A stretch of 64,000 bases of DNA from an uncultured Dehalococcoidales bacterium (GTDB taxonomy: Bacteria > Chloroflexota > Dehalococcoidia > GIF9 > AB-539-J10). The DNA lies in NCBI GenBank assembly GCA_964509565.1, contig CAZDXE010000001.1, positions 3,670 to 67,669 of the forward strand. The letters are read 5' to 3'. Made by a program: the position numbers and the translations under genes. The notes beneath the pieces were generated by a model. The model saw only the letters and a list, made by a program, of their open reading frames with translations, did no database searches and was not told the origin of the DNA. Below are positions 17,628 to 47,018 of this stretch, one piece after another. Every line of letters begins with the position of its first letter. The stretch's first letter is position 1.

Positions 17628-17703
17628 TGGTCGGGGTGAGAGGATTTGAACCTCCGGCCTCATGGTCCCAAACCATGCGCGCTACCAACTGCGCTACACC
17701 CCG
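17628..17703 (-). tRNA. tRNA-Pro (anticodon TGG), 3' CCA encoded
   Basis: Reverse complement CGGGGTGTAGCGCAGTTGGTAGCGCGCATGGTTTGGGACCATGAGGCCGGAGGTTCAAATCCTCTCACCCCGACCA. Anticodon loop TTTGGGA gives TGG with G37. The overlapping 61-aa ORF is spurious. Confidence 0.9.
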
Positions 17704-17794: not shown

Positions 17795-18520
17795 TTATCT
17801 ACAATCGGGGCAAACATCAAAGAAATCCAATGGCAAACCAGCTTTCCCTCGCATATATTCCACCTGCTCTTCGGGAACCCAGTAGTTACCGCAGATTTTA
17901 CATTTCTTCAACTTGAATTCCTTTTTCCAATTGCGGGCATAGAGGGTTCTGGTATCTCCCCTATCCTCTATTTTTATAGCCCCAGTAGGGCAAACATAAG
18001 CACAAGAGCCACAACCTATACAAGCTGAAGAAGGCTCAAAAAAAGGTGGTGCCACTTCCCTATTCACCCCACGATTAACCAGGCTAATAGCACTTCTCTC
18101 TACAACTTGTTCACAAGCCCTAACACATAAGCCGCAAAGAATGCAATCTTTATCCTCCAGGTATTCAGGGTCAAATGGCGCTTGCTCAATGCCCATACTG
18201 GAAGCCAGTTCTTTTATAACCTTATTTTGAGAACAGCGAGCCAGGAGTAATTCCATTATCACTTTGCGGTTACTTATAACACGAGCTGAATTAGTTTTAA
18301 CTTCAAGTCCTTCTTCTATTGGGTAAATACAGGAAGTTACTAAACGGGAACGGCCATTTTTGAATATTTCCACCATACAGAGACGGCAAGCTCCATAAGA
18401 AGCTAAATTTTCATGGTAGCAGAGAGTAGGTATATTGATACCTTTCTCTCTGGCTACTTCGAGTATTGTTTGCCCTTCTTCTGTTTCTATCTTCTTTCCA
18501 TCAATATTGAGTGTTATCAT
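17795..18520 (-). CDS. HoxU/NuoG-N-terminal-like iron-sulfur protein ([2Fe-2S] plus two [4Fe-4S]), with no catalytic hydrogenase or formate dehydrogenase domain
   Basis: N-terminal plant-type 2Fe-2S motif C..(x10)..C..C...(x13)..C (TLCYHENLASYGACRLCMVEIFKNGRSRLVTSC), then CILCGLCVRAC and CIGCGSCAYVCP 4Fe-4S motifs, and a C-terminal Cys-rich tail. No H-cluster motifs. 241 aa. Confidence 0.8.
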   Translation of the reverse strand: MITLNIDGKKIETEEGQTILEVAREKGINIPTLCYHENLASYGACRLCMVEIFKNGRSRLVTSCIYPIEEGLEVKTNSARVISNRKVIMELLLARCSQNKVIKELASSMGIEQAPFDPEYLEDKDCILCGLCVRACEQVVERSAISLVNRGVNREVAPPFFEPSSACIGCGSCAYVCPTGAIKIEDRGDTRTLYARNWKKEFKLKKCKICGNYWVPEEQVEYMRGKAGLPLDFFDVCPDCR

Positions 18521-18527
18521 TCTTGGT

Positions 18528-20414
18528 TTACCTTATGCCCACAGCTCCCAATTTACAAACATCTTTACAGATACCACACTTGATGCATTTACTCTGATCC
18601 AGAGCTACTGGTTTTTTCTTGCCCTTGAAAGCTATAGCTTCCACGGGGCAAGCTTTTTCACAAAGTCGACAACCTGGGCATTTATCCTCTTTTATGTAAT
18701 ATTGAATCAAGGCTTTACACACACCGGCGGGACATTTCTTCTCTTTGATGTGTGCTTCATATTCATCTCCGAAATAACGGATAGTGGAGAGCACTGGATT
18801 AGGGGCAGTTTTACCCAAAGCGCATAATGAGCAATCCTGCAAAGTAGCAGATAAACGCTCCAAAAGTTCAATATCTCCCTCTTTCCCTTTCCCTTCAGTG
18901 ATGTTATTTAATATCTGGCGCATTCTTTTTATGCCCTCACGACAGGGAACACACTTGCCACACGATTCTTCCTCCAGAAAAGTGAGGAAATATTTAGCGG
19001 TATCCACCATACAAGTATCCTCGTCCATAACAATCATGCCACCTGACCCCATCATTGAGCCTGCCTTGCTCAGTTCATCGAAATCCACAGGCATATCAAG
19101 CATGCTTTCAGGAATAACACCACCAGATGGGCCTCCAGTCTGTACACCTTTGAATTTTCTCCCATCTTTTATGCCTCCGCCAATATCATAAATAACTTCC
19201 CGTAGTGTCATTCCCATAGGCACCTCTACCAGCCCAGTATTGTTTACCTTACCCACCAGTGAGAAAATTTTTGTTCCTTTACTTCCTTCAGTGCCTATAG
19301 CTTTAAACCAATCAGCGCCTTTATTAACTATTAAAGGCACATTTGCCAGGGTTTCCACATTATTCAAGTTACTGGGTTTATCCCACAGACCTTTTTCCAC
19401 CGTGTGAGTGTATTTAGCTCTGGGCTCTCCGGCCCTACCTTCCAGAGACGCCATTAAGGCAGTTGATTCGCCGCAAACAAAAGCGCCACCACCTCTGTTA
19501 ATGTGAACAACAAAGTCAAAGCCAGAGCCAAGGATATTTTCACCTAAAAAACCTAGCTGTCCTGCCTGCTCTATGGCTATCGTGGCATTTTCCACCGCTA
19601 AAGGATATTCGTTACGCACATAAATATAGCCTTCGTGAGAGCCAATAGCATAAGCGCATATTATTAATCCTTCAAGAACACTATGAGGATTACCTTCGAG
19701 TAGGCTTCTGTCAGAGTAAACTCCTGGGTCACCCTCATCACAATTAGCGATAACATACTTGGGTTCTCCTGTAGCGTTACGGCAGAATTGCCATTTCTGC
19801 CCCGTAGGAAATCCTCCGCCCCCACACCCCCTCAACCCTGAACGTTTGATCTCCTCTATCGTCTCTTCCGGAGTCAATTCAAAGAATACTTTAGCTAAAG
19901 CCGAATAGCCACCCAACGCAATATAATCCTCAATATTGTTAGGATCAATTTCGCCATTATTGCCAAAAACGATTCTTTTCTGTCTTTTATAAAAAGGTAT
20001 CTCGGCAGGATGTATATATTTTTTTCCGCTGGCAGGGTCAATATACAGCAACCTGTCAACAATCCTGCCGTCGATAACAGTATCCTTTATAATTTGAGAT
20101 ATATCCTTTACCTCCACCTTTTGATAAAAAACATCGCCGGGCTGGATGATAACAATCGGTCCTCGTTCGCAAAAGCCATGACACCCTGTAGTTTTTATGT
20201 TAACTTTATCAGTGAGATTCTGAGTTGCTACCTCCTGTCTAAGAGCCTCTGTAACCTCTACACACCCACTAGCATGGCATCCTGTGCCATTGCACACGGT
20301 AATGAGCGACTTGTCTCTCTCCCCTTCTTTTTTCGCCTGTACCTTCTTTTTTAGATTTTCTAAATCGCGTAAAGAGTTAATCTTGCCCACTAGCAAACTC
20401 CCATAATTATTCAT
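18528..20414 (-). CDS. NuoF/HoxF/HndC-like NAD(P)H-binding flavoprotein with N-terminal [2Fe-2S] and C-terminal 2x[4Fe-4S] domains
   Basis: 628 aa. N-terminal thioredoxin-like 2Fe-2S region ([14 protein letters not shown]..), the 51-kDa NADH/FMN core ([13 protein letters not shown].., ..CGESTAL..), and C-terminal CPxCxxCxxAC ferredoxin motifs. Confidence 0.85.
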
Positions 20415-20898
20415 ATTTACTTAATATTGAGGCAACTTGACCAGTGTTTACTTGTCCAAAATACTTGCCATCAATCCTTACCACCGGGCCCAGGGCACAA
20501 CATCCCATACAATTCACCGTTTCTAGCGTGAACTTAAAGTCACCAGTCGTTTCCCCGGCGTTAATTTCTAATCTTCGCTCAATTTGCTCCAACACTTTAG
20601 ATGCACCTCTAACATGGCAGGCAGTTCCCAGACAAACGCTAACTGTATGTCTGCCCTTAGGTTCAAGGCTAAAAGTTTTGAAGAAAGTAGCTACGCTATA
20701 CACCCGGCTTAACGGAATATCCACAACCTCACTTACCTGCACTAAAGCTTCCTTGGGTAAATAGTGAAAGCTGGACTGGATATCCTGCAATATAGCAATC
20801 AACTGGCCTTCTTCAGCCTTATATTTATCAATAATGGCAGTAACTTCCTGCTTATCCATAATTTCATTGTGAGCAGTGCCTGATTTTTCCCTGGTCAT
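20407..20898 (-). CDS. NuoE/HoxE/HndA-like thioredoxin-like [2Fe-2S] ferredoxin subunit
   Basis: 163 aa with the C-x4-C..(x35)..C-x3-C pattern ([21 protein letters not shown]) of 24-kDa subunit homologs. Overlaps neighbours by 8 and 4 nt. Confidence 0.85.
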
Positions 20899-21815
20899 TG
20901 AGCAGCTTTCTCCTTGATTCTGGCATATTCCTTGTTTACTCTCTGCTGTATTTTATCCACCAGCTCCGGTGTAAGATGTCTGAATCTCCCCTGGGGTTTC
21001 AGATAATCTATAACAGGGCGCAGCTGTGGCGGGTCATAATTCAAGCTATATTTTCCATTCTCTACTTCATAAAGGGGGAAAACACCTGTTTCTACTGCCA
21101 GCCTGCCCAGCTTTATGGTCATATCGGTAGGAATTCGCCAGCCTGTAGGGCAAACAGCAAATACGTGAAGGTAACTTGGGCCCTCAATTGCTATTGCCTT
21201 TTTTACCTTGTTCATAAGGTCGAAGGGATAGCTTGCAGAGGCAGTAGCTACGTAGGCAATATCATGAGCTACAGCGATAGCTGGCATATTTTTCTTCCAT
21301 GTGCTTTGCCCAAAACTGGTTTTGCCCGCTGGTTGGGTGGTAGTTGAAGCACCGAATGGAGTGGCACTCGACCTTTGAATACCTGTATTCATGTAAGCCT
21401 CGTTATCAAGGCAAACATAAAGAAAATCATGTCCTCTCTCAAAAGCGCCAGATAAGGCCCCGAGGCCAATATCAAAAGTTGCTCCATCTCCACCTATAGC
21501 TACTACCTTAGCTCTGGGCAAAGAAGCTCCTTTGCGAGCCAGAGCTTTTCTGGCAGATTCTATGCCTGTAGCTACCGGGGCAGCATTCTCAAATAAGGTA
21601 TGAATCCAGGGAACCTCCCACGCAGTATAAGGAAGTTGCGAGGATATAATTTCCATGCAGCCAGTGGACATAACAACGATCACATCTCGCCCTAAAGCTT
21701 TCATTACAAGCTTCAACGCCAGAGCCTCGCCACACCCTGAACAGGCACGATGTCCCGGGGTAAAGCTTTGCCTCTTTGTTACCAGACGAGGTGCATATAT
21801 GCTCAGAGTTTCCAT
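20895..21815 (-). CDS. porB: Pyruvate/2-oxoacid:ferredoxin oxidoreductase beta subunit (TPP-binding)
   Basis: ..VIVVMSTGCMEI..AIGGDGATFDIG.. TPP/Mg-binding GDG motif. 306 aa. Confidence 0.88.
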   Translation of the reverse strand: METLSIYAPRLVTKRQSFTPGHRACSGCGEALALKLVMKALGRDVIVVMSTGCMEIISSQLPYTAWEVPWIHTLFENAAPVATGIESARKALARKGASLPRAKVVAIGGDGATFDIGLGALSGAFERGHDFLYVCLDNEAYMNTGIQRSSATPFGASTTTQPAGKTSFGQSTWKKNMPAIAVAHDIAYVATASASYPFDLMNKVKKAIAIEGPSYLHVFAVCPTGWRIPTDMTIKLGRLAVETGVFPLYEVENGKYSLNYDPPQLRPVIDYLKPQGRFRHLTPELVDKIQQRVNKEYARIKEKAAQ

Positions 21816-22990
21816 TATTTCTCCCTTACATCAAACACTTCGACTTCACCAAGTTTGCCTTGACTAGCTTTATCCATTCCACGATGTATCATATTTTGAA
21901 AGTCTTCAACTGAAATATCTCTACCACCCAATCCGCCGATAAAACCAATAACCTGTGGCCTTTCTTTCAAATGATATAAGGCAGCCTGTACTTCAGAGCA
22001 AACAGGCCCTGGCCCACCAACGGAAAGGGCACGGTCAAGAACGATGAGCAATTTTGCTTGACCTACAGTTTGGCGGAATTGCTCAAAGGGAAATGGCCGC
22101 CACAGGCGTAATCTCACCAGGCCCACTTTCTCTCCCGCTTTCTTGAGTCTATCTATAGCTTCCATGGCCACTTCGCTGAAACTTCCCATAGTCAGAAGTA
22201 AAACATCTGCATCCTCTGCTCCATAGGTTTCCACAGGCGAATAGTTACGTCCGAATTCTTCTCCAAACTTTTGCCATACCTGGGTAATCACCTTTAGTGA
22301 GTTTCGCAAAGCCATATCATGCGCTACCTTAGCCTCAGTATAAAGGTCAGGTAGAGCAAAATCTCCCATAGCTACTGGATTATTCACATCGAGAACAAAA
22401 GGATGATGATATTTGGGAAGAAATCCAGTTACCTTCTCCTGTTCAGGAAGCAAGACAGCTTCAATAACATGTGATAGGTGAAAACCATCAATATGAATCA
22501 TGGTAGGAAGAAGAACCGCAGGGTCTTCAGCAATGTGGAAAGCACATACAGTCAAATCGAAAGACTGTTGAGCATTCTCAGCAAATATCTGAACCCAGCC
22601 TGTATCGCGAACAGACATAACGTCGGAGTGGTCTCCCCAGATACTTAACGGTACTGACAACGCCCTGTTGCATACAGACATAACTATAGGTAGCCGCATC
22701 CCTGATGCTACATATACTACTTCGTGCATTAGCTCCAGTCCCTGACCAGAGGTAGCGATGAAAGTCCGCCCGCCTGCTGCCGAAGAGCCAAGGCAGGCAC
22801 TCAATGCTGAGTGCTCTGATTCAACAGGTATATAATTTGCATCCAGTTCCCCATTAGCAACCAATTGTGCCACCCGTTCTACAATATGGGTCTGAGGAGT
22901 AATAGGGTAAGCCGCACAGACGTCAATATTAGCCATCTTGACTGCTTCCGCTATGGCAAAGGAAGATTCAAAAGCTACTCTTCTCTCCAT
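21815..22990 (-). CDS. porA: Pyruvate/2-oxoacid:ferredoxin oxidoreductase alpha subunit
   Basis: 391 aa. AIAEAVKMANIDVCAAYPITPQT.. pyrimidine-binding domain. 1-nt overlap with porB. Confidence 0.88.
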   Translation of the reverse strand: MERRVAFESSFAIAEAVKMANIDVCAAYPITPQTHIVERVAQLVANGELDANYIPVESEHSALSACLGSSAAGGRTFIATSGQGLELMHEVVYVASGMRLPIVMSVCNRALSVPLSIWGDHSDVMSVRDTGWVQIFAENAQQSFDLTVCAFHIAEDPAVLLPTMIHIDGFHLSHVIEAVLLPEQEKVTGFLPKYHHPFVLDVNNPVAMGDFALPDLYTEAKVAHDMALRNSLKVITQVWQKFGEEFGRNYSPVETYGAEDADVLLLTMGSFSEVAMEAIDRLKKAGEKVGLVRLRLWRPFPFEQFRQTVGQAKLLIVLDRALSVGGPGPVCSEVQAALYHLKERPQVIGFIGGLGGRDISVEDFQNMIHRGMDKASQGKLGEVEVFDVREK

Positions 22991-22993
22991 TTT

Positions 22994-23878
22994 CTATGCC
23001 TCAACCATAGTTATGGCTCCCGTCCAGCACTCACGGGCACAAATGCCACATCCTTTACAATAAAATTCATCAGCTTCAAAATAACCCTCCGCATCCTGGC
23101 GAATACAATCTTCAGGGCAAAAGAGAGCACACATACCACATTTAATACATTTCACGTTATCTCTCACAGGGCGTTCTGATTTCCAATATCCAGTTTGGTA
23201 GCTCCTGGCATTCCCCATCTCAGTTACTACAAAACCAGGATTTAGCTCTTTCCATGATAGGCTTTTCTCGACAGGGTAGACTTTTTTGGGTTTCTTAGCG
23301 CCAGGGATTGATTCCATTATAAGAGCTTCTTCATATGCTCTGCTGCAAGCCTTAACATTGATTTCACTTAGTTTGCCAAATCTTTCTTGCAGCGGCTGAG
23401 TTAAAGATTCCAGATTAACCATACCAGTTGCCTTTATCAGGGCTCCTAACATAGCAGTATTGACAATAGGTCTCTTCAGTATATCCCGGGCAATAGCAGT
23501 AGCATCTACTACTGCTAATTTCCATGGGCCACCAATTTCCGAATTTACGATGGCTAATCCTTTTGAGCTATTTACTACGAGAACGCCGCCATCCTTGAGC
23601 CCATGGGTAACATCGATAATACCAAGCAAGCCAGGATCTAATATCACAACGACATCAGGTTCAGCAATAGCAGCCCTGGATCTGATAGGTTTATCTATAC
23701 TTACGCGATTGAAAGCTATGACGGGAGCCCCTCTCCTCTCAGGGCCGAAGCTGGGGAAAGCTTGAGCAATTTTGCCTTCCTTTATTGCAGTTGAAGCCAG
23801 AAGTTCCGCCGATGTTACCGCTCCCTGTCCTCCTCTGCCATGCCAGCGAATCTCTATAATATTATCCATCACTTGCAA
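22994..23878 (-). CDS. Pyruvate:ferredoxin oxidoreductase gamma-delta fusion (PorG plus 2x[4Fe-4S] PorD)
   Basis: N-terminus IEIRWHGRGGQGAVTSAELLA.. is gamma-type. C-terminus CIKCGMCALFCPEDCI...CKGCGICARECWTGAI is the delta ferredoxin. 4 nt upstream of porA. Confidence 0.85.
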   Translation of the reverse strand: MQVMDNIIEIRWHGRGGQGAVTSAELLASTAIKEGKIAQAFPSFGPERRGAPVIAFNRVSIDKPIRSRAAIAEPDVVVILDPGLLGIIDVTHGLKDGGVLVVNSSKGLAIVNSEIGGPWKLAVVDATAIARDILKRPIVNTAMLGALIKATGMVNLESLTQPLQERFGKLSEINVKACSRAYEEALIMESIPGAKKPKKVYPVEKSLSWKELNPGFVVTEMGNARSYQTGYWKSERPVRDNVKCIKCGMCALFCPEDCIRQDAEGYFEADEFYCKGCGICARECWTGAITMVEA

Positions 23879-23887
23879 CTTCTACTC

Positions 23888-23959
23888 TACCCCTGAAGGG
23901 ACTCGAACCCTTGCACCTGGCTCCGGAGGCCAGCGCTCTATCCTCTGAGCTACAGGGGC
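23888..23959 (-). tRNA. tRNA-Arg (anticodon CCG)
   Basis: Reverse complement GCCCCTGTAGCTCAGAGGATAGAGCGCTGGCCTCCGGAGCCAGGTGCAAGGGTTCGAGTCCCTTCAGGGGTA. Anticodon loop CTCCGGA gives CCG. Good cloverleaf; CCA not encoded. Confidence 0.87.
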
Positions 23960-25947: not shown

Positions 25948-27123
25948 ATGAAATTAACAGTTATTGGATTAGGACAATGTGGTTGCCGCATTGCTGACCA
26001 GTTTGCCAGGCTTAATTCCAAGGCACAAGTTGAGCGCAGGGCAACCATAGCGCCAGACATAGTCGCTGTGAACAGCGACCAGGCAGATTTAACTGGATTG
26101 AGATTTATTAAGAAAGACTATATGCATAGTATACTCATCGGTTTACGCCAGACATTGGGGCATGGCGTGGGCAAGATAAATGAAATAGGCGCCCAATTAG
26201 CCAGAGAAGATGGGGATAAGGTGATGGATGCTATAAAGGCAGAGCCAACGTTTTATGAAACACATGCTTTTCTGCTCATTGGTGGTGCTGCTGGTGGCAC
26301 TGGCTCAGGCGCATTACCTGTGATTGCTCAGATGATTAAGGAGAGGTATCTCAATAAACCGATTTATGCCCTTGTTGTATTACCATTTGAACATGAAATT
26401 AGCAGTGAGACCAGAAGCGTATACAACACAGCCACCTGTCTCAAATCCATATATGATGTAGCCGATGCCGTTTTCCTGGCTGATAACCAGAGGTATGTTA
26501 GAAAAGATGCCAGTCTGGCTAATAACATAGAAAAAATAAACCGTCATATTGCAGAACCCTTCTATGACTTGATGTGCGCTGGCGAAATAACTAAGCGCAA
26601 ATTCGTGGGCTCCAGAACTGTAGATGCAGGAGACATTATTGCCACACTGGAAGGCTGGACAGCTATTGGAATTGGTAGAACTCCGCTGCCGTCATTTCGT
26701 TTCCCATGGGAAATAAAGAAGAAAAGCTTCCACGAGAAAGCTATGGAAAGCTTTCGAGGCTCTCAGGCCCTGGATGCTACACTATCTGACCTCTCTATTG
26801 GCTGCGACCCTAATGATGCTGCCAGAATTACATATATTATATCTGGACCAGCCAAGGAAATGAACATGGATATGGTCAAAGGCGTTAGCGAGTATCTCAA
26901 AGAGATATCGCCCACTGCTTTAATCAGAGGCGGTGACTTCCCTGGTGAAAAACACTTTATCGATATCACATTGATATTATCTCAGCTCTCTTCCGTGCCT
27001 AAAATAAAGGACCTTTATGAGAAAGCTGTCAAATATGGACAGGAGCATAAAGGTCAAATAGAGGAAAGTCACAAAAAAATTCAATCCATGGCTGATGTAG
27101 GCAAGGAATTGCCCACATTGTAA
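25948..27123 (+). CDS. Tubulin/FtsZ-superfamily GTPase, CetZ-like and non-canonical (not the division FtsZ)
   Basis: N-terminal MKLTVIGLGQCGCRIADQF has the T1 loop GQCG, as in tubulin GQCGNQ and CetZ GFGQAGG. T4 signature IGGAAGGTGSGALPVIAQMIKE matches tubulin/CetZ GGGTGSG, against FtsZ GGGTGTG. A GHGVG motif and ..FLADNQRY.. (T7-like DN) follow. From memory, the N-terminal roughly 230 aa align along their length with Haloferax CetZ1. GAGGAGG SD. Confidence 0.75.
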   Translation: MKLTVIGLGQCGCRIADQFARLNSKAQVERRATIAPDIVAVNSDQADLTGLRFIKKDYMHSILIGLRQTLGHGVGKINEIGAQLAREDGDKVMDAIKAEPTFYETHAFLLIGGAAGGTGSGALPVIAQMIKERYLNKPIYALVVLPFEHEISSETRSVYNTATCLKSIYDVADAVFLADNQRYVRKDASLANNIEKINRHIAEPFYDLMCAGEITKRKFVGSRTVDAGDIIATLEGWTAIGIGRTPLPSFRFPWEIKKKSFHEKAMESFRGSQALDATLSDLSIGCDPNDAARITYIISGPAKEMNMDMVKGVSEYLKEISPTALIRGGDFPGEKHFIDITLILSQLSSVPKIKDLYEKAVKYGQEHKGQIEESHKKIQSMADVGKELPTL

Positions 27124-41420: not shown

Positions 41421-43151
41421 ATGGACGGATTCTACAACAAAATTTTGCGCATTAATGTTAGCAAGAAATCATTTGAACAGGAACCGGTCAGCGATGAAAT
41501 CTACCAAACATTATTAGGAGGCAAAGGCCTTGCCACACATCTGCTGGTGAACAACACAAAAGCAGGAGTTGACCCTTTATCAGAAGGCAACGTGCTCATT
41601 TTCGCTACAGGGCCTGTTACAGACACGGCAGTTTGGGGCTCTTCCAGATATGGGGTATTCACCAAAGCTCCTTTAACGGGATTATATGCTGAATCTTATT
41701 CCGGGGGTAAAGTTGCTGAGCCGCTGAGTAGAACTGGCTATGACGCGATAATGATCGAAGGAGCTTCTAAAAACCCTGTTTATCTTGAGATTTCTGACGG
41801 AGATGTAAAATTTCATAATGCATCTCATATCTGGGGAAAGGACACCTACGAAACAGAGGATATTATAAAACAAGAAGTTGGCATAAAAAATGCAGGAGTT
41901 GTCGTTATAGGGCCCGCTGGTGAAAATTTGGTGCGATTCGCCTGCATCGAAAATGATTACTGGAGGTCGGCTGGCAGAACAGGAGTTGGAGCAGTAATGG
42001 GCTCTAAGAAAATTAAGGGCATCGCCTTCCATGGTAACAAGAAGAGGAAAGTGGCAAACCCCGACTTACTTAAGAAGCTGAGTACGGAACTAAAAGATAT
42101 AGGCAAAGATAATCCTGGAGCAAAGAACTACAGAAGTTTTGGGACATTACAAATGGTACCTATCATGAACAAAGTTGGGGCATTCCCCACAAAATACTGG
42201 CATGCAGGAACTTATGATAAATGGCAAAACTTAACTCAGGATGCCTTACAGAAGAAAGCTAAAGTACGATCACACGCATGCCCAAGATGTTTTATGGGCT
42301 GTGGAAGGTTGACTGAGGTGCTTGAAGGCAGGCACAAGGGACTAAAACAGGAATTAGATTATGAAACTGTAGGTGCTTTTGGTGGAGTATGCCTGATAGA
42401 TGATATCGTGGAAGTTGTGTATCTAAACGATATATGTGACAGATTGGGCATGGATACCATAACTGCAGGCAACCTGGCAGGTTTTACCATAGAAGCTTCT
42501 CACTTAAAAGATATCGGAGAGAAAATTGAATATGGAGATGTTGACGCTATTGCTGCTTTGTTAAATAAAATGGCAATGAAAGAAGGTATCGGGGCTATTC
42601 TGGCCGAAGGCATAAAACATGCCAGCAAAGAATGGGGCCTCGAGGATTTGGCTATTCATGTCAAAGGAATGGAACCTGCATGCTATGATCCAAGGGTTTT
42701 GTATGGAATGGGTTTAGCATTTGCCACTTCGGACAGAGGCGCATGTCATTTAAGAGCAACTTTCTATAAAGCAGAGCTTTCAGGGGCGATATCCCCAACT
42801 GCAGTCGAGGGTAAAGCAGAGATGCTTATCGATTTCGAAGATAGGCACAATCTTTTCGACGCCCTGATTTTGTGCAGATTTTTCAGAGACCTGTACCCGT
42901 GGGAAAAAATTTCAACAGTCATAAACGCAACTACGGGAATGGAGCTAGATAAGAAGCAACTGCAGAAAGTGGCTTCAGCTATTGCAAATAAGGTTAGGGA
43001 GTTTAACCTGCGCGAGGGAATGAATAAAGAGATAGACGAAACACTGCCAAAGAGATTTTTCGAGGAAAAACTTGAGGATAGTGGCAAGGTATTACCCAAA
43101 GCTAGTTTTGACAGGATGTTATCTGATTATTATAAACTCAAAGGGTGGTAA
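41421..43151 (+). CDS. Aldehyde:ferredoxin oxidoreductase (tungsten/molybdopterin AOR family)
   Basis: MDGFYNKILRINVSKKSFEQEPVSDEIYQTLLGGKGLATHLL.. N-terminal AFOR_N domain and C-terminal AFOR_C with the Cys ligands of the [4Fe-4S] cluster (..CPRCFMGCG..). 576 aa. Confidence 0.9.
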   Translation: MDGFYNKILRINVSKKSFEQEPVSDEIYQTLLGGKGLATHLLVNNTKAGVDPLSEGNVLIFATGPVTDTAVWGSSRYGVFTKAPLTGLYAESYSGGKVAEPLSRTGYDAIMIEGASKNPVYLEISDGDVKFHNASHIWGKDTYETEDIIKQEVGIKNAGVVVIGPAGENLVRFACIENDYWRSAGRTGVGAVMGSKKIKGIAFHGNKKRKVANPDLLKKLSTELKDIGKDNPGAKNYRSFGTLQMVPIMNKVGAFPTKYWHAGTYDKWQNLTQDALQKKAKVRSHACPRCFMGCGRLTEVLEGRHKGLKQELDYETVGAFGGVCLIDDIVEVVYLNDICDRLGMDTITAGNLAGFTIEASHLKDIGEKIEYGDVDAIAALLNKMAMKEGIGAILAEGIKHASKEWGLEDLAIHVKGMEPACYDPRVLYGMGLAFATSDRGACHLRATFYKAELSGAISPTAVEGKAEMLIDFEDRHNLFDALILCRFFRDLYPWEKISTVINATTGMELDKKQLQKVASAIANKVREFNLREGMNKEIDETLPKRFFEEKLEDSGKVLPKASFDRMLSDYYKLKGW

Positions 43152-44457: not shown

Positions 44458-45102
44458 TTATTTTGCCCGATACTTATCTATGCCCTCTTCATTTAACTCG
44501 ACATCGCCAATGCCCATTTCAAGAGCCTTTAAGTTCAATTTCATCTTTCCGTGCGGAAAGATATTCCACATTTCATTCTCAACATCCGCCCTTTCCAGAA
44601 CAAGTTGGCCTGAACCAATGAGAGCTCCTACCATAATAATATTCACAACTATGGGAGCGCCCAGTTTCGATGCTATACTTGTAGCATCTACAAGCCAGAC
44701 TAACTTAGAAAGCTTTACAATTGCTTCCTTAAGTTCATCACAACCAGGGTATTCCTCTTTTTCTGAAAGTGCTCCTATTGTCAAGATAGGATGTGTATTG
44801 GTTACACACACTACTCCTGGGTTTCCATATCGCTGTAGCATCCTTAAAGTCTCCAGAGGTTCAAGTCCGAGAATAAGATGAGCTTTACCTTGTGGAATTA
44901 GCGGCCCATAATGCCCTTTAGTAAATATCCTGAGGGTACTAAAAACGGCGCCGCCCCTCTGGCTAGCCCCAAATGTTTCTCCTATAGTGACATGATAGCC
45001 CTTCTTCATCAACGCATTACCTATTAAGCCTGAGATTAAGATGTTCCCTTGACCCCCAACTCCACAAATAATCAGGTTTAATGGGTCACAAGAAATAGCC
45101 AT
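44458..45102 (-). CDS. iorB: Indolepyruvate (aromatic 2-oxoacid):ferredoxin oxidoreductase beta subunit
   Basis: ..LIICGVGGQGNILISGLIGNALMKKGY.. is a typical IorB N-terminus. 214 aa. 1-nt overlap with iorA. Confidence 0.88.
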   Translation of the reverse strand: MAISCDPLNLIICGVGGQGNILISGLIGNALMKKGYHVTIGETFGASQRGGAVFSTLRIFTKGHYGPLIPQGKAHLILGLEPLETLRMLQRYGNPGVVCVTNTHPILTIGALSEKEEYPGCDELKEAIVKLSKLVWLVDATSIASKLGAPIVVNIIMVGALIGSGQLVLERADVENEMWNIFPHGKMKLNLKALEMGIGDVELNEEGIDKYRAK

Positions 45103-47018
45103 TATTTTATATTCTCCTTAACGATAGCTTTATATGGGCATATATCAACACAGACTCCACACCCAGTACAAACTTCCTCCAGCACTTGTGCCTTATCAAC
45201 CTCCTTATCATGGAATAAAGCAGGACACTGAAACTCCCTGTAGCAAAACCCGCACTTTCCCCCCCCACATTTTTCTGGATCAACCCAAACTCTATACGGG
45301 CGGGCCCGCTCCTCTTTCATTCGAACCAATTCACACTTTCTACGTAAAATCAGGACCTTAGGCCCATTCTCATCTTTCAGCAACTCACAGAGAGTGATTG
45401 TGGTCCCCTTTATATCAAAAGGGTCTCTCACTTGTACTTTGCACCCTATAGCACGACAAAGGCTCTCAATAGACACTACGGGGGCTGGGTCCTGAGTGGC
45501 AGTTCTACCTGTCCCTGGGTGAGGTTGGAAACCAGTCATTCCCGTAGCACCATTATCTAGCACTAACAGCGTCATGCTCGACTTGTTATAAACAGCGTTA
45601 ATTAACGCTGGGATTGATGCGTGAAAAAATGTTGAGTCGCCGCATATCCCAATAGACGGCTGTTCCGACCCTAAAGAGGCAAGCTGGCCAAAACCACAGG
45701 CCGACCCTGCTCCTGAGCCCATGCAATGCACTATATTGCTCTGGTGAGGGCCATAGGGAAATACGTCCAGTGTGTAACAACCAATATCACCAACCACCAC
45801 CACCTTTCTACCATCACGTTTTATGGCCTTCTTTAAAGAGAGAAAGCTAGCCCGATGAGGGCACCCAGGGCACCAGAGCATGCCGCGGTCAATGACCAGC
45901 GGCTTAGCTGTATCCTGAACCATCTGCTCATAACTAGTTTCTCTCGCCCGATATTGCAATTTCAAGATTTCAGCCAGGGCGCATATTATTCCATCCGGTG
46001 TTATCTCACCGACAGGGTTTATATGGCCAGAATCTTTACCATATATTTCCAGGGGCAGTACCGTATCTAAATACAATGTTGCTGTTTCTCTCACGTGAGC
46101 TTCGACAAAAGGATCCACTTCCTCTGCCACGAGTACCCTGGTTGTCAATTTTAAGTATTTAGCAACAAATTTCTTGGGGAACGGCCACAGAGTCACCAGT
46201 TTCAGAATTCCCACTGATTCACTCAAGCCCAGTGTTTCTACAGCCTCAAGAGAGCATGGCCAGCCACTACCACTACAGATTATCAGCAGCTCTGGTTGCT
46301 CTGGTCCTGTATATGAATTGAAAGGGCTGGACTCAAACATCTCTTGAACCTTGAGCATCTTCTCATGCAAAATGGCATGTTTCGGTGTAGTCGGGAAGGG
46401 AATATAGTGTTTAGTGGTATCGAATACAGCTTTCTTCTCTGGCCGGGATATTTTCCCGAGCTTGACATCACCATGTGAATGGGACAGTCGTGTATAGCTC
46501 CTCAAGAAACACCAGCATTTCAACTCCTCAGATAAATCAAATGCCCACCTGGTCAAATCCTTGGCCTCCTGCACATCTGTTGGCTCTAAAAGGGGGGCAC
46601 TGGCTATTTTAGTTATCCAGCGTGTATCAGCTTCATCATCACTGGAATGAGCTTGCGGATCATCACATACAACTACCAGCAATGCTCCTCCCCCATCACC
46701 TATACCTGTCAGGTTAAGGTGCGTCAAGAAATCCATTGCTACACTTGCACCAGCATTCTTCATGGCAGCAAGTCCTCTCAATCCAGAAAAAGCTGCTGAC
46801 GCTGCTACTTCTGTAGCTACCTTCTCATTGACAGACCATTCCACATGAATACCAATATTTTTAGCAACTGTGGCAAGTGTTCCAATAATTTCTGAGGAAG
46901 GCGTCCCTGGATAAGCAGCGCAGAAGTGCACTCCTGCCTCAAGTGCACCCCTGGCTATTGCTTCATTGCCAAGCAGCAGCGCAGAAGTGTCTGCTTCTTG
47001 CCCCATGATGTCTCGCAT
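45102..47018 (-). CDS. iorA: Indolepyruvate:ferredoxin oxidoreductase alpha subunit (TPP, 2x[4Fe-4S])
   Basis: ..LLLGNEAIARGALEAGVHFCAAYPGTPSSEI.. N-terminus, TPP domain, and C-terminal CxxCxxCxxxCP ferredoxin motifs (CTGCGVCVDICPYKAI). 638 aa. Confidence 0.9.
   Translation of the reverse strand: MRDIMGQEADTSALLLGNEAIARGALEAGVHFCAAYPGTPSSEIIGTLATVAKNIGIHVEWSVNEKVATEVAASAAFSGLRGLAAMKNAGASVAMDFLTHLNLTGIGDGGGALLVVVCDDPQAHSSDDEADTRWITKIASAPLLEPTDVQEAKDLTRWAFDLSEELKCWCFLRSYTRLSHSHGDVKLGKISRPEKKAVFDTTKHYIPFPTTPKHAILHEKMLKVQEMFESSPFNSYTGPEQPELLIICSGSGWPCSLEAVETLGLSESVGILKLVTLWPFPKKFVAKYLKLTTRVLVAEEVDPFVEAHVRETATLYLDTVLPLEIYGKDSGHINPVGEITPDGIICALAEILKLQYRARETSYEQMVQDTAKPLVIDRGMLWCPGCPHRASFLSLKKAIKRDGRKVVVVGDIGCYTLDVFPYGPHQSNIVHCMGSGAGSACGFGQLASLGSEQPSIGICGDSTFFHASIPALINAVYNKSSMTLLVLDNGATGMTGFQPHPGTGRTATQDPAPVVSIESLCRAIGCKVQVRDPFDIKGTTITLCELLKDENGPKVLILRRKCELVRMKEERARPYRVWVDPEKCGGGKCGFCYREFQCPALFHDKEVDKAQVLEEVCTGCGVCVDICPYKAIVKENIK

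Follow-up and report, generated by a model that had tools for sequence, protein, structure and literature searches.

The BfuABC family of HydABC homologues was defined by Schut et al. (2022, Front Microbiol 13:946711, PMC9304861) by the domains IPR011538, IPR019554, IPR019575 and IPR017896 in BfuB, IPR002023 in BfuC and at least IPR017896 and IPR001041 in BfuA. Por-Bfu is a predicted Type 2 member of this family that occurs mostly in organohalide-respiring Chloroflexi and is exemplified by Dehalococcoides mccartyi 195; 12 sequences were known in 2022, and the locus of strain 195 has a tRNA-flanked layout in which all genes are co-expressed (PMC9304861). According to the 2025 study of the WorABCSL structure (PNAS, PMC12318220, PDB 9MQX), the counterpart of WorA in Por-Bfu retains the zinc-finger motif at its C-terminus but is devoid of the C-terminal docking helix. 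Nqo1 of T. thermophilus, the NAD-reducing NiFe-hydrogenase of R. eutropha, the formate dehydrogenase (FDH) beta subunit of R. capsulatus and HydB of S. wolfei are non-bifurcating, lack the metal sites B2-B5 and do not use ferredoxin (PMC9304861). Here, we describe six consecutive open reading frames (ORFs) on the minus strand, porGD, porA, porB, bfuC, bfuB and bfuA (17795-23878, Table 1), in a 64-kb window, i.e. the whole stretch of DNA analysed, from an uncultured Dehalococcoidia lineage. These genes probably encode a Por-Bfu, in which a pyruvate:ferredoxin oxidoreductase (PFOR) of three polypeptides would be joined to BfuCBA and would bifurcate electrons from pyruvate to NAD+ and ferredoxin (Fd), or catalyse the reverse reaction.

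An earlier note on this DNA had recognized a PFOR and a NuoE/NuoF/NuoG-N-like module in the same six minus-strand genes, as Pfam and NCBIfam assignments confirm. The note favoured a plain pyruvate:NAD(P)+ oxidoreductase, with a bifurcating or confurcating module hard-wired to PFOR as the alternative. It is the alternative that coincides with the published prediction of Por-Bfu (PMC9304861), whereas the favoured reading now appears less likely in view of the extra clusters and hinge of BfuB and of the bifurcating enzymes that are its best solved relatives. The novelty implied for the association of such a module with PFOR does not hold either, as it has been in the literature for Chloroflexi since 2022 (PMC9304861). 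The locus is a further example of an already described, predicted class, the general idea of which was published in that year. A literature search for earlier notice of a Por-NuoEF linkage in Dehalococcoidia genome papers gave nothing specific beyond Schut et al. (2022).

In BfuB, an N-terminal thioredoxin-like [2Fe-2S] domain is followed by a flavin mononucleotide (FMN) domain of the Complex1_51K type (PF01512), an SLBB domain (PF10531), an NADH_4Fe-4S domain (PF10589) and a C-terminal 2x[4Fe-4S] domain. All ligands of the invariant BfuBC core, that is of the five BfuB metal sites B1-B5 and of C1 in BfuC, are present. The N-terminal [2Fe-2S] cluster (B5) has the ligands C41, C46, C78 and C82, the N3-like [4Fe-4S] cluster (B1) C485, C488, C491 and C531, and the C-terminal [4Fe-4S] pair (B3, B4) C579/582/585/589 and C610/613/616/620. 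The Cys/Thr/His/Cys/Cys hinge site, comprising C468, T506, H555, C561 and C566, was mapped by full-length alignment to C438/C476/H525/C531/C536 of NiFe-HydB (7T2R_B), and about two thirds of BfuB sequences have Thr where NiFe-HydB has C476 (Schut et al. 2022, PMC9304861). The cofactor ligands are kept in 54-58 of 58 orthologues. A check of the FMN and NADH motifs and a count of the Fe-S ligands had been proposed in the earlier note; a NuoF-type domain with the FMN and NADH site was found, together with all the ligands that define the family.

The comparison of the BfuB sequence with proteins of solved structure leads to the same group of enzymes. Full-length alignments were obtained with 9mqx_B (7e-236), 7t2r_B, 8a6t_B, 7q4v_B and 7p5h_B, whereas Nqo1/NuoF cover only residues 145-560 of 628 with 383 bits, about half the score of the bifurcating relatives. 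When the segment holding the hinge and B1 was compared with the 12 published Bfu types, the best match was the D. mccartyi Por row, with 72% identity over 104 aa; this comparison is supportive only, as the 12 rows are machine-read text with optical character recognition noise and the segment is short. At residue 197 (19824-19826), in the glycine-rich FMN loop, the window encodes Cys where 56 of the 58 orthologues carry Arg (GLRGRGG[AG]GF). Besides the window, Cys197 was found only in locus L002 (85% identical), and we regard it as a lineage-specific substitution and not a sequencing error.

BfuC carries the [2Fe-2S] ligands C89, C94, C130 and C134, which are invariant in 47/47 orthologues. Its top match in the Protein Data Bank (PDB) is WorC (9mqx_C, 3.4e-44), followed by bifurcating HydC and NfnC, and it scores under both the HoxE and the NuoE equivalog cut-offs of NCBIfam. 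For BfuA the top PDB match is WorA (9mqx_A, 247 aa, 1.6e-51), the alignment spanning residues 3-241 including the zinc-finger cysteines. The protein consists of a Fer2_4 domain (PF13510/PF00111) and a 2x[4Fe-4S] dicluster, with C34, C45, C48 and C64 as ligands of the [2Fe-2S] cluster A1 and C126-C136 and C167-C177 as those of the [4Fe-4S] clusters A2 and A4. A C-terminal CxxC...CxxC zinc finger (C207, C210, C237, C240) aligns with that of WorA, and the protein ends right there. No PF10588-type His-ligated cluster (A3) is present in BfuA: the stretch from the [2Fe-2S] domain to the dicluster contains a single Cys (C96), and the alignment of HydA with BfuA skips the His-ligated segment.

It is noteworthy that neither Pfam nor NCBIfam detected an H-cluster, a molybdopterin domain or any other catalytic domain in BfuA. 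Homologues of 237-256 aa and 66-100% identity were found in more than 120 protein clusters, assigned to Dehalococcoidia or Chloroflexi where named, and the 16 cluster and zinc cysteines are invariant in 79-80 of 80 species-level homologues. The earlier note had considered that the 241-aa protein might be a truncated pseudogene of a larger HndD/FdhA. This candidate is ruled out by the conserved length, the conservation of all 16 cysteines and the lack of an H-cluster or molybdopterin domain; BfuA shows no sign of recent truncation and belongs to an intact family.

The family definition was applied through Pfam models, with PF01512, PF10531, PF10589, PF01257, PF13510/PF00111 and the Fer4 diclusters taken by us to be the equivalents of its InterPro domains, and by these the three proteins fall within BfuABC. 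Type 2 is indicated by a BfuA with A1, A2 and A4 only, by the zinc finger in place of A5 and by separate Por subunits. Within Type 2, the contiguity of the por genes with bfuCBA, the proximity of the BfuB hinge to the D. mccartyi Por row and a Wor-Bfu of clade 45 as the best solved relative all point to Por-Bfu. The placement in the Por sub-clade of clade 45 rests on the hinge segment and the similarity to Wor-Bfu, with clades as in the 1,558-sequence tree of PMC9304861. Like the D. mccartyi 195 system, the present locus combines Por, BfuC, BfuB and an A1/A2/A4-only BfuA in a member of the Dehalococcoidia with two flanking tRNA genes, and its BfuA has the zinc finger without the C-terminal helix described in PMC12318220. 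However, seven genes (A-G) were described for D. mccartyi and six are found here, as the gamma and delta modules are fused, and the organohalide respiration of D. mccartyi contrasts with the heterotrophy suggested by the neighbouring genes in the window, which is a part of the genome.

Among solved structures, WorABCSL of Acetomicrobium mobile (9MQX), a biochemically and structurally characterized bifurcating aldehyde oxidoreductase, comes closest to each of the three Bfu subunits; the next matches are bifurcating HydABC, NiFe-HydABCSL and NfnABC. WorABCSL shares the Type 2 layout of BfuA (A1, A2, A4 and zinc finger, no A3) and likewise has a third substrate of very low potential. Its catalytic module, however, consists of the tungstopterin subunit WorL and the polyferredoxin WorS instead of a thiamine pyrophosphate (TPP) enzyme, and the BfuA described here ends at the zinc finger. 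The HydABC enzymes of Thermotoga maritima (7P5H), Thermoanaerobacter kivui (8A6T) and Acetobacterium woodii (7Q4V) align over the full length of BfuB and BfuC with the same ligands, and BfuA aligns with the N-terminal part of HydA, which comprises the [2Fe-2S] and 2x[4Fe-4S] domains. In contrast to HydA, BfuA has neither the H-cluster domain nor the His-ligated [4Fe-4S] cluster, and the third substrate is handled by separate Por subunits.

The earlier note had also likened the last three genes to HoxE/HoxF/HoxU. This resemblance stands as far as homologous folds and core cofactors are concerned, i.e. the [2Fe-2S] cluster of NuoE, the FMN and N3 of NuoF and the [2Fe-2S] and [4Fe-4S] clusters of the NuoG N-terminus. 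The curated NCBIfam cut-offs were nevertheless missed for HoxE (153.4 vs 224) and HoxU (137.2 vs 333), as well as for the complex I N-module subunits NuoF (TIGR01959, 478.3 vs 558.65), NuoE (TIGR01958, 126.2 vs 142.4) and NuoG (TIGR01973, 100.4 vs 470), and the best solved relatives are bifurcating enzymes. Moreover, Nqo1 of complex I and the homologues from the R. eutropha NAD-reducing hydrogenase, from FDH and from S. wolfei are without the additional clusters of BfuB (PMC9304861).

The catalytic module encoded by porGD, porA and porB corresponds to a PFOR of the four-subunit PorABGD type, with alpha, beta, gamma and delta modules, a TPP site and one beta and two delta [4Fe-4S] clusters. PorGD scores 211.5 against TIGR02175 (cut-off 81.1) and 81.5 against TIGR02179 (cut-off 60.05), and its delta domain has the cysteines 244/247/250/254 and 274/277/280/284. 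The [4Fe-4S] ligands of PorB, C25, C28, C53 and C222, are invariant in 49/49 orthologues. PorB lies above the cut-off of the curated PorB equivalog NF008819 (412.9 vs 405) and gives a lower score with the VorB-type model (348.6). The top NCBIfam model for PorA is PorA_Arch with 472 bits, below the archaeal equivalog cut-off of 550, and the assignment of pyruvate as substrate consequently leans mainly on PorB. A precedent for electron transfer from a 2-oxoacid to NAD+ within one complex is the NADH-dependent phenylglyoxylate dehydrogenase PadEFGHI of Azoarcus/Aromatoleum, an enzyme of the 2-oxoacid:ferredoxin oxidoreductase type in which the partner is a flavoprotein different from NuoEF/BfuBC. 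The Pad gamma, delta, alpha and beta models gave significant matches here, but all remained below their equivalog cut-offs.

The gene order was compared among relatives of BfuA, scanned in one genome per species of GTDB. At least 574 relatives were confirmed, and the best 80 were analysed (L001-L080, L001 being the closest with 90% identity); most of these are metagenome-assembled genomes (MAGs) of Dehalococcoidia, the rest being labelled Chloroflexota/Chloroflexi or Chloroflexia, with one Anaerolineae and one Pirellulales bin. Among the 44 loci of this set with at least 5.5 kb upstream of bfuA (flanks of up to 10 kb), the order porG(D)-porA-porB-bfuC-bfuB-bfuA is kept in 43, so that the comparison across Dehalococcoidia and Chloroflexi suggested in the earlier note shows the six genes to be colinear almost throughout. 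The gamma and delta Por modules are fused in 26 of these 43 loci and split in 17. The identical 241-aa BfuA was found, with the same neighbours, on at least 24 independently assembled contigs, so that an assembly artefact can be dismissed. What the data show directly are the gene content, the cofactor residues, the sequence-based family membership and the conserved synteny.

In a few of the 80 loci the BfuA-like gene is found in other company. In L065 (3278-5227; MNYD01000097, Dehalococcoidia bacterium CG2_30_46_19) and L077 (1796-3745), porB and the BfuA-like gene are separated by a gene for one 649-aa protein in place of bfuC and bfuB, with a thiolase gene downstream. This protein combines a NuoF-C-terminal [4Fe-4S] domain with a GltD/NfnB-like FAD-NAD(P)H module (Fer4_20/Pyr_redox_2), and has the look of an alternative head, possibly linked to NADP(H), on an unchanged Por-BfuA chassis. 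The arrangement of Por, BfuA-like protein and 649-aa flavoprotein has no description in PMC9304861 or PMC12318220. In L014 (3642-5310; CAYHBC010000050), the BfuA-like gene follows porB directly, with no flavoprotein gene between them or within 3.3 kb downstream, where a thiolase gene is again found; this would represent either Por with an Fe-S adaptor and no pyridine-nucleotide module or a gap in the MAG assembly. In L080 (4556-10762; DAOWJS010000099, a Dehalococcoidales MAG), bfuC-bfuB-bfuA are preceded by genes for a CooF-like polyferredoxin, a 629-aa carbon monoxide dehydrogenase (CODH; Prismane/CO dehydrogenase family) and a second CooF-like protein, and the BfuA has 253 aa with a C-terminus longer than in the Por type. 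This locus is apparently a chloroflexal example of a Codh-Bfu cluster, whereas Codh-Bfu has been reported in Firmicutes only (Schut et al. 2022, PMC9304861). In combination, these loci show that the system is modular and that the BfuA-type protein accompanies the catalytic module; the exchange of the flavoprotein in L065 and L077 and the CODH-linked BfuCBA of L080 fit a role of BfuA as an adaptor from the catalytic module to the pyridine-nucleotide flavoprotein.

From the sequence we infer a single complex, its electron route, its bifurcation, the use of NAD over NADP and the direction of turnover, the route being modelled on the path in WorABCSL and on the Bfu scheme of Schut et al. (2022). 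Pyruvate would be decarboxylated at the TPP site of PorA/PorB, and the electrons would pass via the [4Fe-4S] cluster of PorB to the two [4Fe-4S] clusters of the PorD domain. They would enter BfuA at A4 and follow A4-A2-A1 to the N3-like B1 and the FMN of BfuB. There, the centre formed by FMN, B1, B5 and C1 would split the four electrons of two pyruvate molecules, two being transferred as a hydride to NAD+ and the other two leaving singly via the hinge site and B3 and B4 to free ferredoxin. The net reaction, which is taken to be reversible, would be: 2 pyruvate + 2 CoA + NAD+ + 2 Fd(ox) → 2 acetyl-CoA + 2 CO2 + NADH + H+ + 2 Fd(red). The oxidative direction seems the more plausible one because the gene neighbourhood points to a heterotroph living on peptides or amino acids.

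Several points weigh against this interpretation, the energetics foremost. The pyruvate/acetyl-CoA+CO2 couple, at about -500 mV (PMC9304861, Table 1), is as low as ferredoxin, and NAD+ and Fd could therefore both be reduced without bifurcation, as the authors of the family definition concede with the words 'not clear why'. In the reverse direction, the combination of NADH and Fd(red) would raise the mean donor potential and presumably make carboxylation harder than with Fd alone. Furthermore, BfuA is without the C-terminal helix on which docking of the partner subunit depends in WorABCSL, the FMN loop of BfuB carries Cys where 56/58 orthologues carry Arg, and no convincing sigma-70-like promoter was detected upstream of the operon, between the tRNA-Arg gene and porGD. 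Co-transcription of the six genes is deduced solely from their spacing, and in the literature searched Por-Bfu itself stands as a prediction (PMC9304861, PMC12318220). Still, the substrate of Wor-Bfu, the closest characterized enzyme, is of equally low potential, and Wor-Bfu reduced NAD+ and Fd only when both were present (PMC9304861). Because of this strict mutual dependence of NAD+ and Fd despite a low-potential substrate, bifurcation is ranked above its rivals and is held to be probable. The Por-Bfu reading as a whole is preferred because of the full BfuBC ligand set, the Type 2 BfuA, the bifurcating enzymes among the best structural matches, the synteny in 43/44 loci and the overlap of porB with bfuC.

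A non-bifurcating pyruvate:NAD(P)+ oxidoreductase, in which all electrons would flow from Por via BfuA and FMN to NAD(P)+ and the additional clusters of BfuB would have a structural or regulatory role, is an unlikely competitor. In its favour, pyruvate at about -500 mV reduces NAD+ directly and requires no bifurcation (PMC9304861). PadEFGHI and the GltD-like NAD(P)H flavoprotein that replaces BfuBC in L065 and L077 provide precedents for such an enzyme. However, the N-terminal [2Fe-2S] cluster, the C-terminal [4Fe-4S] pair, which represents the ferredoxin site, and the His/Cys hinge are kept in 54-58 of 58 orthologues, these features are absent from the named non-bifurcating homologues, and Wor-Bfu reduced neither NAD+ nor Fd alone (PMC9304861). 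Likewise improbable are two separate enzymes made from one transcript, i.e. a ferredoxin-dependent PFOR and a free-standing BfuABC that would serve as a soluble Fd:NAD+ oxidoreductase or interact with an unlinked partner. Por is complete in its own cofactors and includes a delta ferredoxin domain, as do free-standing four-subunit PFORs, and the docking helix of WorA is missing from BfuA. Against this, the synteny is near-universal (43/44), the start of bfuC and the stop of porB overlap by 4 nt, and Por and the BfuA-like protein stay adjacent in L014, L065 and L077 despite the exchange or absence of the flavoprotein. In addition, a Bfu core with NAD and Fd only has, by definition, no third couple to bifurcate against (PMC9304861).

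Both remaining proposals for the locus are considered very improbable. In one, BfuABC would be a HoxEFU/HymABC-like diaphorase for a hydrogenase or FDH encoded elsewhere, with an incidental adjacency to por; many BfuA homologues are indeed named 'bidirectional [NiFe] hydrogenase diaphorase subunit' by JGI, there is sub-threshold similarity to HoxE and HoxU, and the 64-kb window displays only part of the genome. Yet no such catalytic gene occurs in the 64 kb or in the Por-linked loci (flanks up to 10 kb), the HoxE and HoxU scores (153 vs 224 and 137 vs 333) fall short, the linkage to por is kept in 43/44 species, and BfuA lacks the His-ligated A3 by which electrons are passed to the NiFe enzyme. 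In the other, the architecture would be the same and the substrate another 2-oxoacid, such as 2-oxoisovalerate or another branched-chain or aromatic one. PorGD reaches only 'pyruvate/2-ketoisovalerate family' models in its gamma and delta parts, PorA remains at 472 of the required 550, the scores of the 2-oxoisovalerate oxidoreductase (VOR) models follow closely, and the window also encodes aminotransferases, an indolepyruvate oxidoreductase (IOR) and an aldehyde:ferredoxin oxidoreductase (AOR). The pyruvate model is nonetheless the best match for every subunit, and PorB passes its equivalog (412.9 vs 405), above its VorB-type score of 348.6.

With regard to the chemistry, pyruvate (about -500 mV) could alternatively act as a middle-potential donor, its electrons being bifurcated to NAD+ and to a ferredoxin whose effective potential would be much lower than that which an ordinary PFOR reaches, a proposal that we regard as doubtful. 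If it were true, the enzyme would supply Dehalococcoidia with 'super-reduced' ferredoxin for reductions at very low potential, and the GltD-like variants in L065 and L077 would mark interchangeable pyridine-nucleotide heads on one Por-BfuA chassis. On the preferred Por-Bfu assignment, the locus is a clean and complete example, of modest importance. The 43 loci with the full cluster extend Por-Bfu beyond the 12 sequences of 2022 and include lineages whose gene context looks heterotrophic and not organohalide-respiring. If the enzyme bifurcates, the NADH and ferredoxin pools would be fixed in ratio at the pyruvate/acetyl-CoA node of these abundant subsurface bacteria, and such a fixed ratio would bear on redox balance and energy conservation where energy is limiting. 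Heterologous expression could be convenient with this version, given its fused gamma-delta subunit and compact six-gene operon.

Table 1 Genes of the por-bfu cluster and its tRNA boundaries (ORF starts as initially set by the longest-ORF rule)
Feature	Position	Strand	Assignment and evidence
tRNA-Arg(CCG)	23888..23959	-	ARAGORN; upstream cluster boundary; 3' end 18 nt before the likely porGD ATG
porGD	22994..23878	-	Fused gamma (POR domain) and delta (2x[4Fe-4S]); Pfam PF01558 and Fer4 dicluster; TIGR02175, TIGR02179
porA	21815..22990	-	Alpha (POR_N and PFOR domain II); Pfam PF01855 2e-68, PF17147 7.5e-27
porB	20895..21815	-	Beta (TPP site and one [4Fe-4S]); Pfam PF02775 (TPP_enzyme_C); NF008819
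bfuC	20407..20898	-	NuoE/HydC-like, C1 [2Fe-2S]; Pfam PF01257 2.2e-50; 163 aa
bfuB	18528..20414	-	NAD(H)/FMN subunit; Pfam and PDB alignments; 628 aa as longest ORF
bfuA	17795..18520	-	Type 2, [2Fe-2S], two [4Fe-4S] and zinc finger; Pfam and PDB alignment; 241 aa
tRNA-Pro(UGG)	17628..17703	-	ARAGORN; downstream cluster boundary

The spacings between the six genes, in gene order, were measured as +3, -1, -4, -8 and +7 nt, in agreement with the earlier note for the last four values and not for the first, which it had given as +4. Two of the start codons are probably other than those set initially. For porGD, the most likely start is the ATG at 23869 (291 aa) and not the TTG of the longest ORF, because L001, the closest relative, has a stop codon right after the TTG and because L001, L002, L004 and L005 all start at the position of the ATG (GTG in L004). 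The start of bfuB is probably the GTG at 20390 (620 aa), which has a GGGAG Shine-Dalgarno sequence ahead of it, because gene callers yield 620 aa and more distant homologues begin there. With this start the spacing between bfuC and bfuB becomes +16 instead of -8, and the 8-nt overlap is accordingly given less weight as an indication of translational coupling. The coupling proposed in the earlier note is in this respect weakened, but it retains the 4-nt ATGA overlap at the porB/bfuC junction, which is independent of both start-codon revisions; porB furthermore overlaps porA by 1 nt.

The promoter and terminator scan of the operon gave 17 promoter-like sequences vs 15.0 expected and 7 terminator-like sequences vs 7.1 expected, a chance-level outcome that decides nothing. 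Separate transcription of the genes, raised in the earlier note as a finding that would speak against an operon, is indicated by nothing in these data, although the terminator count is uninformative either way. A promoter-like TTGACC-17-TATATT (17786-17758), a consensus match only, lies between the bfuA stop codon and the tRNA-Pro gene. As no sigma-70-like promoter was recognized between the tRNA-Arg gene and porGD, the por genes may be co-transcribed with tRNA-Arg; in L001, L002, L004 and L005, too, the tRNA-Arg gene has its 3' end immediately ahead of porGD.

On one side, the cluster is flanked by genes for a short-chain dehydrogenase/reductase (SDR), thrS, infC, rplT and pheST, and on the other by those for a TIG-domain protein, a tubulin-like protein and an M24 peptidase. 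Pfam scans of 28 of the 38 other ORFs of at least 200 aa revealed no catalytic subunit of a hydrogenase, a formate dehydrogenase or a molybdopterin enzyme in the window. The scanned ORFs comprise the neighbours of the cluster and every other ORF above 339 aa, so that any hydrogenase large subunit or FdhA would be among them, and the earlier statement that the cluster and its vicinity lack a hydrogenase is upheld. Likewise, no nuo membrane or Q-module genes adjoin the cluster, and neither [NiFe] subunits nor a reductive dehalogenase gene were seen within the window.

The window also encodes two class-III aminotransferases, peptide-type solute-binding proteins, a CoA transferase and a BKACE enzyme. 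The aldehyde:ferredoxin oxidoreductase (AFOR_N/AFOR_C) is located at 41421-43151 on the plus strand, and an indolepyruvate:ferredoxin oxidoreductase pair at 44458-47018 on the minus strand, consisting of IorA, with 581 bits just under the cut-off of 651, and IorB. Together with the aminotransferases, the peptide-binding proteins, BKACE and the CoA transferase, these two oxidoreductases suggest further ferredoxin-reducing catabolism, i.e. amino-acid fermentation, and the gene neighbourhood as a whole suggests a peptide or amino-acid heterotroph rather than an organohalide respirer. Finally, the tubulin-superfamily protein encoded at 25948-27123 on the plus strand matches CetZ_C (PF21011, 1.4e-19) and reaches 59 bits against the FtsZ equivalog cut-off of 295; judged by these scores, it is a non-canonical, CetZ-like bacterial tubulin, encoded beside the TIG/Ig-domain protein.

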